IMG/VR virus record: IMGVR_UViG_2565956624_000015
Length of the DNA: 4,155 nucleotides
Direction: 5' to 3' (one strand)
Source: a virus
Lineage: Duplodnaviria > Heunggongvirae > Uroviricota > Caudoviricetes
Part shown: piece by piece, positions 32 to 4,155 of the stretch
Position numbering within the stretch: position 1 is the stretch's first letter
Layout: every line of letters starts with the position of its first letter
Position numbers and translations under genes: made by a program
The notes under the pieces: generated by a model
Told to the model about the DNA's origin: nothing
The model's input: only the letters and a program-made list of their open reading frames with translations
Database searches by the model: none

Positions 32-51
32 GTTTACGCCGCATCCGGCAA
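32..51 (-). repeat. REP-like (repetitive extragenic palindromic) remnant downstream of ybhC
   Basis: Minus-strand reading TTGCCGGATGCGGCGTAAAC matches the conserved half of E. coli REP units. Only one half-palindrome is present, so this is a partial copy. Confidence 0.4.
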
Positions 52-65
52 ATAGTTAATAGCTC

Positions 66-1349
66 TTACTTCTTCGCCTCTGCAACCACTTTGCTACCCA
101 CGCCGCGGTTATTGTATTCCCACATGCGGTTGTAGTTAGTGTCATTCAGATTGCGTTGTATTTCGTCGTTATCATCAACGCTGCCGGTGTTACCCGCAAA
201 CGGACGATTAGAGATCACCGCATCAGCCCAGGGTTTGGCTGTGTTAAAACCTTCGTTGATGGCGCTATCACGGATCACCACCTGACCGTTGGTATTGGCA
301 TCAACATCCAGCGAGCGACCCAGTTGCGCCACGCCATCACCGGAAGCATTGAAACGGCTGTTTACGGCGAGGAAACCGTAATAGATGTTAGACAGCGTAG
401 CCGGTGCAAACACATACGCTTCTTGCTGAGTACGTGAGTTCACCACGCGGAATTCGGTGTTATCGAACACCACTGCGCCGCGACCAGAAACGATATCCAC
501 ATCCCCTTCAATGTAACTGTTGGTCACCAGAGTACGCGGCTGACGGTTGGTTTCCAGACGGTTTTGCACACCACTGTTGGTGACAAAGAAGGTATTCTGA
601 CGACCGAGAATGTTGACGTTATTGATCTGCACTTTGTCACCATCAGTACGCAGTGCCACCGCCGGATGGTTACCCGCATCTACGCTATCGCCCAGCGTGT
701 TTTCGATGGTCAGATTTTGCAGTTGCAGGCCATTGTTTTGTGACCAGAAGACCGCAGAGCAGAGAACACCGATACTGTCGCTGCGTTTGCTCTGGCAGCT
801 ATCGTACATATACCACGCTGGTTTACCTGGCATATATTTGCCGCGCGGGTTGACGTCGTGACGCCAGTCGGCAGGGCTCATGCCCCCATCAAGGGAAAGC
901 CCAATCTTCACATCAATCGGTTTTTCACCTGTACCGTACAGAGTAATTCCACCCGGAGCGGCAGGGACATACACCGTTCCCTGATACTCACCAGGCATCA
1001 CGGCAATATACTGGCGCTTGTTGGTGCGCTTGATAATTGCCGCATCTACCGCCGCCTGAATCGTGGTATGCGTTACACCTTGAGTACCCGCCGGGCCGAC
1101 AACAAAGTCAGGTTGCGCAGGCAGGGTAATCGGGGAAGGATTCCACGCTGCCGCACCTGGTGTCAGGGATGCAAAATAGTGTTGAGCATCGAAATTCTGC
1201 GCTTCTTTTGCCGACAGAATCGGGCGAGAAGAGGTACCAGGCGCGGTTTGATCAGAAGGACGTTGATCGGGCGGTGTTGAGCTACAGGCGGTCAGCGTCA
1301 CGCCAAAAGCCAATGCCAGCGCCAGACGGGAAACTGAAAATGTGTTCAC
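66..1349 (-). CDS. ybhC: Outer-membrane lipoprotein YbhC (pectin-methylesterase-like esterase family), the host gene flanking att-lambda on the gal side
   Basis: 427-aa ORF from the track. N-terminus MNTFSVSRLALALAFGVTLTAC is a lipoprotein signal peptide with lipobox L-T-A-C. GTG start at 1347-1349 with GGAG 5 nt upstream on the minus strand. Length, sequence and position next to attB match what I recall for E. coli YbhC. Confidence 0.85.
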   Translation of the reverse strand: MNTFSVSRLALALAFGVTLTACSSTPPDQRPSDQTAPGTSSRPILSAKEAQNFDAQHYFASLTPGAAAWNPSPITLPAQPDFVVGPAGTQGVTHTTIQAAVDAAIIKRTNKRQYIAVMPGEYQGTVYVPAAPGGITLYGTGEKPIDVKIGLSLDGGMSPADWRHDVNPRGKYMPGKPAWYMYDSCQSKRSDSIGVLCSAVFWSQNNGLQLQNLTIENTLGDSVDAGNHPAVALRTDGDKVQINNVNILGRQNTFFVTNSGVQNRLETNRQPRTLVTNSYIEGDVDIVSGRGAVVFDNTEFRVVNSRTQQEAYVFAPATLSNIYYGFLAVNSRFNASGDGVAQLGRSLDVDANTNGQVVIRDSAINEGFNTAKPWADAVISNRPFAGNTGSVDDNDEIQRNLNDTNYNRMWEYNNRGVGSKVVAEAKK

Positions 1350-1380
1350 AGGTTGCTCCGGGCTATGAAATAGAAAAATG

Positions 1381-1487
1381 AATCCGTTGAAGCCTGCTTT
1401 TTTATACTAAGTTGGCATTATAAAAAAGCATTGCTTATCAATTTGTTGCAACGAACAGGTCACTATCAGTCAAAATAAAATCATTAT
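1381..1487. other. attL: Lambda attL (B-O-P'): host arm, 15-bp core 1396-1410, phage P' arm
   Basis: CCGTTGAAGCCTGC (host B arm as in E. coli attB), then core GCTTTTTTATACTAA, then GTTGGCATTATAAAAAAGCATTGCTTATCAATTTGTTGCAACGAACAGGTCACTATCAGTCAAAATAAAATCATTAT, which is the P' arm of lambda attP. The sequence right of the core is phage (GTTGGCATT...), not the host continuation CTTGAGCG. Confidence 0.92.
1435..1487. promoter_or_regulatory. P' arm protein-binding sites: IHF H' site (about 1435-1448) and Int arm-type sites P'1-P'3 (about 1457-1487)
   Basis: TATCAATTTGTTG fits the IHF consensus WATCAAnnnnTTR. AGGTCACTAT, CAGTCAAAAT and AAATCATTAT fit the Int arm-type consensus (C/A)AGTCACTAT. Site boundaries are approximate. 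Confidence 0.65.
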
Positions 1488-2554
1488 TTGATTTCAATTT
1501 TGTCCCACTCCCTGCCTCTGTCATCACGATACTGTGATGCCATGGTGTCCGACTTATGCCCGAGAAGATGTTGAGCAAACTTATCGCTTATCTGCTTCTC
1601 ATAGAGTCTTGCAGACAAACTGCGCAACTCGTGAAAGGTAGGCGGATCCCCTTCGAAGGAAAGACCTGATGCTTTTCGTGCGCGCATAAAATACCTTGAT
1701 ACTGTGCCGGATGAAAGCGGTTCACGACGAGTAGATGCAATTATGGTTTCTCCGCCAAGAATCTCTTTGCATTTATCAAGTGTTTCCTTCATTGATATCC
1801 CGAGAGCATCAACATGCAATGTTGTTGGGATGGCAATTTTTACGCCTGTTTTGCTTTGCTCGACATAAAGATATCCATCTACGATATCAGACCACTTCAT
1901 TTCGCATAAATCACCAACTCGCTGCCCGGTAACAACAGCCAGTTCCATTGCAAGTCTGAGCCAACATGGTGATGATTCTGCTGCTTGATAAATTTTCAGG
2001 TATTCGTCAGCCGTAAGTCTTGATCTCCTTACCTCTGATTTTGCTGCGCGAGTGGCAGCGACAGGGTTTGTTGTTATATGGCCTTCAGCTATTGCCTCTC
2101 GGAATGCATCGCTCAGTGTTGATCTGATTAACTTGGCTGACGCAGCCTTGCCCTCGTCTATGTATCCATTGAGCATTGCCGCAATTTCTTTTGTGGTGAT
2201 GTCTTCAAGTGGAGCATCAGGCAGACCCCTCCTTATTGCTTTAATTTTGCTCATGTAATTTATGAGTGTCTTCTGCTTGATTCCTCTGCTGGCGAGGATT
2301 TTTTCGTAGCGATCAAGCCATGAATGTAACGTAACAGAATTATCACTGTTGATTCTCGCTGTCAGAGGCTTGTGTTTGTGTCCTGAAAATAACTCAATGT
2401 TGGCCTGTATAGCTTCAGTGATTGCTATCCTCCTGTCTCTGCCTAATCCGAACTCTTTACCCGTCCTTGGGTCCCTGTAGCAGTAATATCCATTGTTTCT
2501 TAAATAAAGGTTAGGGGGTAAATCCCGGCGCTCATGACTTCGCCTTCTTCCCAT
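1484..2554 (-). CDS. int: Lambda integrase (tyrosine site-specific recombinase)
   Basis: 356-aa ORF MGRRRSHERRDLPPNLY...HLLGHKSDTMASQYRDDRGREWDKIEIK, recognised as lambda Int (tyrosine-recombinase H-x-x-R...Y catalytic region near the C-terminus). Stop codon lies inside the P' arm, as in lambda. Confidence 0.97.
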   Translation of the reverse strand: MGRRRSHERRDLPPNLYLRNNGYYCYRDPRTGKEFGLGRDRRIAITEAIQANIELFSGHKHKPLTARINSDNSVTLHSWLDRYEKILASRGIKQKTLINYMSKIKAIRRGLPDAPLEDITTKEIAAMLNGYIDEGKAASAKLIRSTLSDAFREAIAEGHITTNPVAATRAAKSEVRRSRLTADEYLKIYQAAESSPCWLRLAMELAVVTGQRVGDLCEMKWSDIVDGYLYVEQSKTGVKIAIPTTLHVDALGISMKETLDKCKEILGGETIIASTRREPLSSGTVSRYFMRARKASGLSFEGDPPTFHELRSLSARLYEKQISDKFAQHLLGHKSDTMASQYRDDRGREWDKIEIK

Positions 2555-2750
2555 TTCTGATCCTCTTCAAAAGGCTACCTGTTACTGGTCGATTTAAGTC
2601 AACCTTTACCGCTGATTCGTGGAACAGATACTCTCTTCCATCCTTAACCGGAGGAGGGAATATCCTGCATTCGCGCACCCATCGACGAACTGTTTCAAGG
2701 CTTCTTGGGCGTCGCTGGCGAGCGTTCCACTCCTGAAGAGTCAAGTACAT
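2532..2750 (-). CDS. xis: Lambda excisionase
   Basis: 72-aa ORF MYLTLQEWNARQRRPRSLETVRRWVRECRIFPPPVKDGREYLFHESAVKVDLNRPVTGSLLKRIRNGKKAKS, recognised as lambda Xis. The 3' end overlaps the int start by 23 nt (2532-2554), as in lambda. Confidence 0.95.
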   Translation of the reverse strand: MYLTLQEWNARQRRPRSLETVRRWVRECRIFPPPVKDGREYLFHESAVKVDLNRPVTGSLLKRIRNGKKAKS

Positions 2751-2776
2751 CGCAAAGTCTCCGCAATTACACGCAA
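2730..2776 (-). promoter_or_regulatory. pI promoter region with cII-binding direct repeats TTGC-N6-TTGC (2763-2776) just upstream of the xis ATG
   Basis: Minus strand reads TTGCGTGTAATTGCGGAGACTTTGCGATGTACTTGAC. TTGCgtgtaaTTGC is the cII recognition motif flanking the -35 of pI. The -10 and transcript start then fall inside xis, so the pI transcript encodes Int without Xis (established lambda biology). I did not assign exact -10 coordinates. Confidence 0.7.
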
Positions 2777-2777
2777 G

Positions 2778-2800
2778 AAAAAACCGCCATCAGGCGGTTT
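2778..2800 (-). terminator. Putative intrinsic terminator between the 55-aa ORF and the pI/xis region
   Basis: Minus strand AAACCGCC-TGAT-GGCGGTTT is an 8-bp stem with a 4-nt loop, followed by TTTCTT. The TGA stop of the 55-aa ORF sits in the loop. Confidence 0.5.
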
Positions 2801-2957
2801 GGTGTTCTTTCAGTTCTTCAATTCGAATATTGGTTACGTCTGCATGTGCTATCTGCGCCCATATCATCCAGTGGTTATAGCAGTCGTTGATGTCCTCGGC
2901 TTCGATAACTCTGTTGAATGGTTCTCCATTCCATTCACCTGTGACTCGGAAGTGCAT
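2790..2957 (-). CDS. Small hypothetical protein, 55 aa (matches my recollection of lambda 'ORF-55' between xis and ea8.5)
   Basis: Hand translation of the minus strand: ATG at 2955-2957, TGA at 2790-2792, giving MHFRVTGEWNGEPFNRVIEAEDINDCYNHWMIWAQIAHADVTNIRIEELKEHQTA. GGAG lies 7 nt upstream of the ATG. Not in the supplied ORF track, probably because it is below the length cutoff. Confidence 0.6.
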   Translation of the reverse strand: MHFRVTGEWNGEPFNRVIEAEDINDCYNHWMIWAQIAHADVTNIRIEELKEHQTA

Positions 2958-3014
2958 TTATCATCTCCATAAAACAAAACCCGCCGTAGCGAGTTCAGAT
3001 AAAAGAAATCCGCA

Positions 3015-3467
3015 TTAAGCGGCGTCGGTGAATTCAAATAAAAAACCGGCTTGCGCCGGCTCTCTCATCTTTCTGTCTACCCATGCTGATATCGATGGCG
3101 GATGCACCTTTTCAATAGCAGCGCGAAGTACAGCTGTACGTGCCAGTTTGTCGGTAATCTCAGGAAATCGCTTCTCTGTCTTCGGTACGTTAACAGCAAC
3201 ATTAGTAGAATCCGCACTGGCGAACGGATACATACCAAGAACTCTCACGTCGAGCATTCGAAGACCATGAATTTTCACTTTCAAATTACGATTGATATAA
3301 ATCTCAGTAAAAACTTCATCCATTCTCTGTTCCCACCATTTAGAGCGTATGTGCCTGTGTGGGCCGCAGCATCCAATCGCCACCCATTCAAATTTTCCAG
3401 AAAGGCGTAAAAGACGTTCAATTGATTCGTCGTATGCCAGACCGGAACCGCTTTTGATTTTAGCCAA
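3015..3467 (-). CDS. Hypothetical protein (ORF B), no family recognised; possibly the out-of-frame C-terminal part of a frameshifted gene, or a shorter gene starting at the internal ATG 3321-3323
   Basis: 150-aa track ORF that begins at a TTG directly after an in-frame TGA. The first ATG in frame is at 3321-3323 (102 aa) with GGTGGG 8 nt upstream. It overlaps ORF A by 187 nt in the -1 frame. Confidence 0.4.
   Translation of the reverse strand: MAKIKSGSGLAYDESIERLLRLSGKFEWVAIGCCGPHRHIRSKWWEQRMDEVFTEIYINRNLKVKIHGLRMLDVRVLGMYPFASADSTNVAVNVPKTEKRFPEITDKLARTAVLRAAIEKVHPPSISAWVDRKMREPAQAGFLFEFTDAA
3036..3059 (-). terminator. Putative intrinsic terminator hairpin embedded in the 3' end of ORF 3015-3467
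   Basis: Minus strand CCGGC-GCAA-GCCGG (5-bp GC stem, 4-nt loop) followed by TTTTTTATTT. It lies within the last ~15 codons (…REPAQAGFLFEFTDAA) of the 150-aa ORF. Confidence 0.45.
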
Positions 3468-3814
3468 TCAGGAACCAACTCAATCTGCTCGTCGTTTTCT
3501 GCCTCTGTCCCTTCGATAACGTCAGGTATAAGAAACCATTCAATTCTGCTGAACCACTTCCCAACAAAGTCGTAGAATTTTGCTCGTCTCTTACTCCAGT
3601 CTACCGGAGTGCCTTTCTTTAATGCTTTCATCCAGTCGCTAAAAGCGCCGTTATCAAGGCGTATATCACAAGGGAACATGGCAATCTTTTTCATCTGCTC
3701 TGGTCTGGCAAATGAAACAAAAGCCCCACTATCACGGTAAAGGGCTTTAATAAGCATATCTGTAGGGGCATGCTCATCACCCCATATTGGGCTGCCGTGA
3801 AAGTGGATGGTCAT
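3281..3814 (-). CDS. Hypothetical protein (ORF A), 177 aa, no family recognised; accessory (moron-like) gene
   Basis: ATG at 3812-3814 with GGGGA 5 nt upstream. N-terminus MTIHFHGSPIWGDEHAPTD; no signal peptide or obvious transmembrane segment. The last ~60 codons overlap ORF B in another frame. Confidence 0.55.
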   Translation of the reverse strand: MTIHFHGSPIWGDEHAPTDMLIKALYRDSGAFVSFARPEQMKKIAMFPCDIRLDNGAFSDWMKALKKGTPVDWSKRRAKFYDFVGKWFSRIEWFLIPDVIEGTEAENDEQIELVPDWLKSKAVPVWHTTNQLNVFYAFLENLNGWRLDAAAHTGTYALNGGNREWMKFLLRFISIVI

Positions 3815-3872
3815 ATTATCCCCATATAAAAGAAATACCCGCGAGTGCGAGGATTGTTATGTAATATTTGGT

Positions 3873-3997
3873 TTAATCATCTATATGTTTTGTACAGAGA
3901 GGGCAAGTATCGTTTCCACCGTACTCGTGATAATAATTTTGCACGGTATCAGTCATTTCTCGCACATTGCAGAATGGGGATTTGTCTTCATTAGACT
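3873..3997 (-). pseudogene. ea8.5: 3' remnant of lambda ea8.5, truncated by IS1 insertion
   Basis: Minus-strand frame ending at TAA 3873-3875 encodes ...SNEDKSPFCNVREMTDTVQNYYHEYGGNDTCPLCTKHIDD, which matches the C-terminal ~40 residues of lambda Ea8.5 as I recall it. The match stops exactly where IS1-like sequence begins (3998). No start codon is in frame, and the frame hits TGA at 4086-4088 inside IS1. Confidence 0.65.
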
Positions 3998-4155
3998 GGT
4001 AATGGTGCCAACTTACTGATTTAGTGTATGATGGTGTTTTTGAGGTGCTCCCGTGGCTTCCATCTCCATCAGTTGTCCCTCCTGCTCAGCTACTGAAGGC
4101 GTGGTGCGTAACGGTAAAAGTACTGCCGGACATCAGCGCTATCTCTGCTCTCACT
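3998..4155 (+). mobile_element. IS1 insertion sequence, left end (left inverted repeat about 3998-4020); element continues beyond the window
   Basis: GGTAATGGTGCCAACTTACTGATTTAGTGTATGATGGTGTTTTTGAGGTGCTCC... closely matches the IS1 left terminal repeat and leader as I recall them (IS1A: GGTGATGCTGCCAACTTACTGATTTAGTGTATGATGGTGTTTTTGAGGTGCTCCAGTGGCTTC...). Several substitutions indicate a divergent IS1 isoform. Confidence 0.85.
4053..4155 (+). CDS. insA: IS1 InsA (transposition regulator / N-terminal part of the InsAB' transposase), 5' partial
   Basis: GTG at 4053, then [33 protein letters not shown], which matches the InsA N-terminus ([37 protein letters not shown] as I recall it), including the CxxC zinc-finger motif. 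Confidence 0.8.

Follow-up and report, generated by a model that had tools for sequence, protein, structure and literature searches.

A frameshifted DpdA-family pseudogene at the left end of a lambdoid prophage in Escherichia coli

The stretch of viral DNA analysed here, in the following called the window, comprises 4,155 nucleotides (IMG/VR record IMGVR_UViG_2565956624_000015) and contains E. coli chromosome and, integrated at the lambda attachment site, a lambdoid prophage of which the left end is included. Two overlapping open reading frames on its minus strand, ORF A (3281-3814, 177 aa, ATG start) and ORF B (3015-3467, 150 aa, TTG start), are best explained as one prophage gene at 3015-3814, a homologue of the phage DNA transglycosylase DpdA, which was frameshifted by the loss of a single nucleotide. 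We assign a probability of roughly 93% to this reading, an ordinary but real and inherited pseudogene.

A single-base deletion in one gene

A preceding interpretation of the letters, referred to here as the sequence-only reading, had described two frames that are both open across 187 nt (3281-3467), and the ORF list agrees. ORF B lies, as stated there, in the -1 (= +2) frame, its start being 347 nt into ORF A, and the three-frame translation places its TTG directly after a TGA (3468-3470). The main proposal, that a 1-nt indel divided one gene, is borne out by intact relatives. Gene gp29 of phage HK106, identified by megablast against phage genomes, is one CDS of 801 nt with 98% nucleotide identity along its full length, and the pairwise alignment with the window requires a single gap, at column 399 (HK106, GGCATACCGACGAA; window, GGCATA-CGACGAA). 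The 1-nt deletion is thereby located at 3431-3433 on the minus strand. A C is missing from codon 128 (ACC to AC) at 3432/3433, inside the overlap, which corresponds to one G of a GG on the plus strand; the coding strand reads CAT AC-G ACG in the window versus CAT ACC GAC in intact alleles. The lesion is situated in a CC dinucleotide and not in a homopolymer run. An uninterrupted 801-nt ORF was also present in four further E. coli prophage copies, which differ in chromosomal site, integrase and neighbouring genes.

Whether intact homologues consist of one ORF or two had been named beforehand as a way to decide the matter. About 2230 homologues were found; over the range of 98% to about 45% identity, they are encoded by single ORFs of roughly 240-290 aa. 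Insertion of one C into the window copy restores a clean ORF of 266 aa, where a fusion of about 265 aa had been estimated earlier, and the whole pseudogene thus measures 800 nt compared to 801 nt (266 codons and stop) in intact relatives. Besides the deletion, the window allele carries only two private substitutions, a synonymous one at L21 and G29S, both upstream of the lesion, which marks the inactivation as recent.

The two ORFs divide the gene between them. The native N-terminal coding part, codons 1-127, occupies 3434-3814 on the minus strand, starts with the ATG at 3812-3814 behind a GGGGA Shine-Dalgarno sequence at 3819-3823, and holds the conserved D54 (LDNGAF), D98 (IPDV) and H127 (PVWH) as well as the predicted barrel strands beta1-beta5. 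The evidence for it comes from its PHROG 887 match, the invariant columns and the predicted strands. Since ACG also encodes threonine, Thr128 is kept, and ORF A runs through 128 native residues before it continues out of frame for another 49 (TNQLNV...SIVI; 3281-3430, minus strand, including the stop at 3281-3283). ORF B begins with a spurious 5' extension of 12 out-of-frame codons (TTG-AKIKSGSGLAY; 3432-3467, minus strand), likewise recognised in the three-frame translation, and continues with native residues 129-266. The corresponding C-terminal coding part, codons 129-266 and stop (3015-3431, minus strand), matches PHROG 887 as well and holds the GCCG motif, H183-G-L and the predicted nucleophile D202 (SADS). 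In the PHROG 887 profile, residues 1-135 of the 177 in ORF A align to positions 10-142 and residues 12-150 of ORF B to positions 135-318 (E = 6e-50 and 9e-46 for the two halves; E = 9e-102 for the repaired protein). By these matches, ORFs A and B are abutting, collinear halves of a single family.

The extent of the overlap had been regarded as uncommon by chance (about 5%), a view that does not hold once a frameshift is assumed. When every base of the repaired gene was deleted one by one and the resulting overlap recorded, its median was 82 nt, and it reached at least 187 nt at 11.7% of the positions. The 187-nt stretch that is open in both frames is a passive footprint of the frameshift.

A full-length protein could in principle be made from both frames by programmed -1 ribosomal frameshifting or transcriptional slippage, and ORF B does lie in the -1 frame. 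The sequence-only reading had found this mechanism unsupported, a judgement we share, on the grounds that the overlap contains no canonical X-XXY-YYZ heptamer, which is not correct: one formal match, A-AAT-TTG, occurs at 3395-3389 in the frame of ORF A. This heptamer, however, is located 12 codons past the lesion, so that a shift there would replace the nearly invariant residues E130, S131, R134 and L138. It is not conserved, HK106 having AAATGTG, and AAU-UUG is not known as one of the efficient bacterial slippery sites. The RNA 3' of the heptamer does not fold in an unusual manner (MFE -19 kcal/mol versus -18.2 for shuffles, z = -0.31), and the lesion lacks a homopolymer. Furthermore, the intact relatives have the same sequence plus one C and need no shift, and the two-frame layout is not conserved among the single-ORF homologues. 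Based on the position and conservation of the heptamer, the RNA folding and the homologues, programmed frameshifting was rejected as extremely improbable.

The second alternative was a two-gene module, in which ORF A (177 aa) and a protein of 102 or 150 aa are expressed separately and cooperate, for instance as the two parts of one TIM barrel. The internal ATG at 3321-3323 indeed yields 102 aa, overlaps ORF A by 43 nt, as had been noted before, and is the start used by PGAP; it corresponds to Met165 of the intact protein. For the identical allele in strain FDAARGOS_1288, PGAP annotates two 'hypothetical proteins', WP_001544360.1 and WP_001544359.1, the latter being the 102-aa product, and current RefSeq also gives two CDSs. 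In addition, the allele is widespread (about 460 contigs), and split barrels are sometimes able to reassemble. However, the two-gene layout is limited to one near-identical allele, found in 11 genomes that are 100% identical over 3966 nt, and the more diverged relatives are single ORFs. Neither the 49-residue tail of ORF A nor the 12-residue head of ORF B finds a match in the family profile. On inspection of the letters, a Shine-Dalgarno sequence is missing before the TTG at 3467 and only weak before the ATG at 3323, and the 102-aa product would be devoid of alpha5, beta6 and the GCCG motif. The single-ORF state of the homologues, together with each ORF matching only its collinear half, excludes a conserved two-gene module, and we consider joint action of two separate products very unlikely.

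Distribution of the allele and the prophage setting

Single-base indels are the commonest type of assembly error, and it might be argued that the true genome possesses an intact gene. The dpdA-like gene is present in 79 of 5426 complete E. coli genomes, 11 of which carry the frameshift allele with 100% identity across 70 nt around the deletion; in the remaining 68, every copy among the matches listed (52) spans one extra base. The 11 genomes were determined in unrelated projects, among others in the USA and Japan, and all are identical to the window over 32-3997 (3966 nt, the ybhC-int-xis-dpdA region). The exact 177-aa product was called on 460 contigs and the exact 102-aa product on 465 (NCBI, ENA, JGI and Logan); among intact 266-aa sequences, the commonest occurs on 890 contigs. 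The CC dinucleotide at the lesion, not being a homopolymer run, also speaks against such an error. Because the same allele appears in 11 complete genomes and, across four repositories, on some 460 contigs, an error of sequencing or assembly, one of the alternatives left by the sequence-only reading, is excluded for practical purposes and was rated exceedingly improbable. The deletion is a genuine mutation that is inherited within an E. coli or prophage lineage.

Within the window, the chromosomal gene ybhC (66-1349, minus strand) adjoins the prophage, with the lambda att core (GCTTTTTTATACTAA) near 1396-1411. It is followed by a lambda-type integrase (1484-2554), an excisionase (2532-2750) and a gene similar to lambda orf55 (2790-2957; PHROG 676 match), and all prophage genes, ORFs A and B included, are on the minus strand. 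The dpdA-like gene lies 3' of the pL-side accessory genes and 5' of orf55, xis and int. Matches to the otherwise identical genomes begin only at window position 32, so that 1-31, downstream of ybhC, are left unaligned; the match to one ETEC genome (H152), by contrast, starts at base 1, and the difference is probably an intergenic variant.

Several terminator-like elements surround the gene. A GC hairpin with a T-run is found at 3040-3065 on the minus strand, inside the last codons of the dpdA-like gene (EPAQAGFLFEF, with GAGCCGGCGCAAGCCGGTTTTTT encoding EPAQAGFLF), a second hairpin at 2977-2996 (minus strand) just 3' of the gene, and another at 3838-3851 (minus strand) on its other side. The hairpin at 2977-2996 falls within 2960-3011, a stretch matching the part of HK022 (X51962) annotated as the tL4 terminator. 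Altogether, six terminator-like sites were observed in 2700-4155 compared to 1.1 expected from shuffles.

At the far end of the window, an IS1-family element is represented by its left end (3998-4155; inverted repeat GGTAATGGTGCCAACTTACTGAT..., InsA N-terminus from 4053), which sits inside an Ea8.5-family gene just upstream, on the pL side, of the dpdA pseudogene. The matches of the 11 complete genomes that share the frameshift end at 3997, so the insertion is private to the source of the window. A polar effect on the transcription of dpdA, xis and int from pL is to be expected and adds to the signs that the prophage is decaying.

DpdA family membership and predicted consequences of the lesion

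Searches of Pfam, NCBIfam and PDB sequences with the ORFs, the repaired protein and an 81-sequence family profile yielded nothing useful; NCBIfam gave no match for the window protein, and no Pfam family was matched even with E values up to 10. The validated DpdA of Escherichia phage CAjan likewise has no Pfam match, and the Pfam negatives are therefore no argument against membership in the DpdA family. The CAjan protein matches PHROG 887 at E = 8e-96, and hhalign aligned the 81-sequence profile with it at a probability of 95.8% (E = 8e-9). The motifs LD(N/S)GAFS, P-x-(W/F)-H, (A/T)IG, K(I/L)H and S-x-DS were in register, and SADSTNV of the family, the region of the predicted nucleophile D202, was paired with SCDSSSW of CAjan. 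A confident AlphaFold2 model of the intact protein is a TGT-like (beta/alpha)8 barrel (pLDDT 93.4, pTM 0.89), of which the C-terminal 11 residues are predicted to be disordered (pLDDT <50 at residues 256-266). The active-site residues D54, D98, H127 and D202 are invariant across the 81 homologues and fall into the CAjan-aligned motifs. By motif order only, they would correspond to Asp95, Asp130, His181 and Asp256 of the bacterial DpdA structure 7UI4. The DpdA mutants D95A and D256A lose guanine-exchange activity (PMC10164549), and Supplementary Data 1 of Hutinet et al. (2019; PMC6884629) counts the HK106 protein (YP_007151699) among the DpdA homologues. The intact protein hence combines the sequence homology, barrel fold and active-site set of the phage DpdA proteins; the window copy has all but the uninterrupted frame and, judged by its sequence, is a pseudogene of this family. 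The family itself is already catalogued.

One metagenomic protein (P0006, 460 aa), 76% identical over the DpdA-like part, is a natural fusion with a C-terminal Dam-type DNA N6-adenine methyltransferase domain (PF05869, E = 4e-58). Such a fusion would agree with a DNA-directed role.

In the AlphaFold2 model, strand beta5 and helix alpha5 flank the break, which follows H127 directly. ORF A retains D54, D98 and H127, whereas the GCCG motif and D202, the predicted nucleophile, belong to ORF B. Translation from the normal ATG would produce the 128 native residues and then the 49 out-of-frame residues, and the remaining 138 native codons would be in the -1 frame without a good start. No activity is expected of either product, since D54, D98 and H127 end up on a different chain from the predicted nucleophile. 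With the predicted TIM barrel interrupted and its catalytic residues distributed over two polypeptides, the window allele is, by this anatomy, most likely null.

Relatives carry at least one further independent frameshift and probably two more lesions. In contig JAOVLP010000026 (GCA_025798125.1; L008), an independent 1-nt deletion occurs at about 1860-1880, near codon 69 (GGCACTCC to GGCCTCC); the whole gene aligns with one gap and is split into ORFs of 70 and 154 aa. Protein-level comparison pointed to a stop at W117 in P0124 and a frameshift after D98 in P0131, which are probably two more independent null alleles. Evidently, the dpdA-like gene is dispensable in lysogens and decays repeatedly. 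Selection for its loss is conceivable because laboratory escape from two 7-deazaguanine-dependent defences, GrwAB (PMC12137116) and Dag1 (bioRxiv 10.1101/2025.10.29.685425), occurs through dpdA mutations. We nevertheless regard it as unlikely that the repeated independent knock-outs of stand-alone dpdA in enterobacterial prophages were selected and do not represent neutral decay. If they were, loss of dpdA could let the prophage or lysogen escape defences acting on 7-deazaguanine-modified DNA (GrwAB, Dag glycosylases); alternatively, the host chromosome could be spared self-modification.

The dpdA-like pseudogene poses no challenge to current understanding, and its practical value lies in annotation. 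In hundreds of E. coli assemblies, RefSeq presents two 'hypothetical proteins' (WP_001544360.1 and WP_001544359.1) where one frameshifted pseudogene of a DpdA-family DNA transglycosylase should be annotated. Biologically, it provides a predicted natural null allele of a stand-alone prophage dpdA. The intact and broken alleles in otherwise near-identical prophages would form a ready isogenic pair, with which it may be asked whether lambdoid phages modify their DNA with host preQ0.

Proposed function and comparison with known systems

E. coli synthesises preQ0 and preQ1 by means of FolE, QueD, QueE, QueC and QueF. The intact 266-aa protein would act as a stand-alone enzyme that excises guanine from double-stranded phage DNA and inserts a 7-deazaguanine base, probably preQ0, or preQ1, taken from the host's own queuosine pathway. 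In the double displacement envisaged, D54 would serve as general acid/base, D98 and H127 would read the base, and D202 would be the covalent nucleophile. The modification would shield the phage DNA from restriction. Post-replicative exchange of guanine for a host-supplied 7-deazaguanine is the best-supported mechanism for the intact protein, in analogy with the characterised phage DpdAs. A third group of 76 phages possessing DpdA and no preQ0-synthesis genes has been described, and the authors proposed that these could use host-made preQ0, adding that their DpdAs may have diverged functionally (PMC6884629). Among such DpdA-only phages, Orion displayed no modification and phage 7-11 only about 0.02% dADG (PMC6884629), for which reason both activity and substrate of the window family, a gamma-proteobacterial DpdA-only group, are inferred. 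Beyond the 2019 catalogue, no experimental work on a prophage or temperate-phage DpdA was found in the collection of papers searched.

No conserved partner gene was found beside the intact copies, whose neighbours differ at every locus examined and include Ea8.5, Ead/Ea22, DUF4752, DUF551, a Mom-like protein and, at one locus only, a DndB/DGQHR protein. With the gene context different at each locus, there is no evidence of a conserved operon partner. In strain 2021CK-01784 (L006), the DndB/DGQHR-domain protein (5707-6771, minus strand; PF14072, E = 4e-46) and a dATP/dGTP pyrophosphohydrolase (4311-4967, minus strand) are located 0.5-2 kb from the intact dpdA-like gene. This DndB/DGQHR-like family also includes DpdB, which acts together with bacterial DpdA. 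The L006 protein could accordingly be a partner of the DpdA-like protein at this locus, and it is absent from the other loci examined. Related prophages have further DNA-modification genes in the same accessory region as the dpdA-like gene, an XF1762-family protein with a weak Mom-family match in L005 (5146-5637, minus strand; E = 4e-5, below the Pfam cut-off) and a 'Nmad5 family putative nucleotide modification protein' in L003 (8906 onward).

Compared with known systems, the window protein of 266 aa is shorter than the bacterial DpdA of the Dpd system from Salmonella Montevideo (413 aa; PDB 7UI4; PMC10164549). The latter has large insertions, Ins8 alone accounting for 30% of the protein, as well as a structural Zn site, and requires the DpdB ATPase (PMC10164549), whereas the window protein contains only three cysteines and has no consistently adjacent partner gene.

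The tRNA-modifying Tgt (Pfam PF01702) differs by a zinc subdomain and an N-terminal lid, both of which are absent from the window protein. Its 266-aa sequence contains no structural zinc site (CxCxxC...H), the cysteines being C49, C149 and C150 only, and the family profile showed no similarity to E. coli Tgt in hhalign (probability 0.3%). An identity as tRNA-guanine transglycosylase does not agree with the missing Pfam and E. coli Tgt matches and the missing zinc site. For HK106 gp29, the annotation 'queuine tRNA-ribosyltransferase' is on the same grounds, no PF01702 or Tgt match, no zinc subdomain and no lid, to be taken as a superfamily label and not as a function.

For the DpdA1 proteins of phages CAjan and 9g, insertion of preQ0 into DNA was shown experimentally (PMC6884629). 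CAjan DpdA shares PHROG 887 and the aligned catalytic-motif columns with the window protein, and both are without a Pfam TGT match and the CxCxxC zinc motif, but only about 20% of the 153 aligned columns are identical. In CAjan and 9g, the gene is part of a folE-queD-queE-queC cluster. The window gene is a solitary one without preQ0-synthesis genes in its vicinity, and its enzyme would need host precursors. HK106, too, is a phage without preQ0-synthesis genes (PMC6884629), and its gp29 (YP_007151699) resembles the window gene in its lambdoid genome, its position next to orf55-xis-int and, once the C is restored, its product size of 266 aa. The HK106 ORF is uninterrupted, and the window copy differs from it by the codon-128 deletion and a few substitutions, including G29S.
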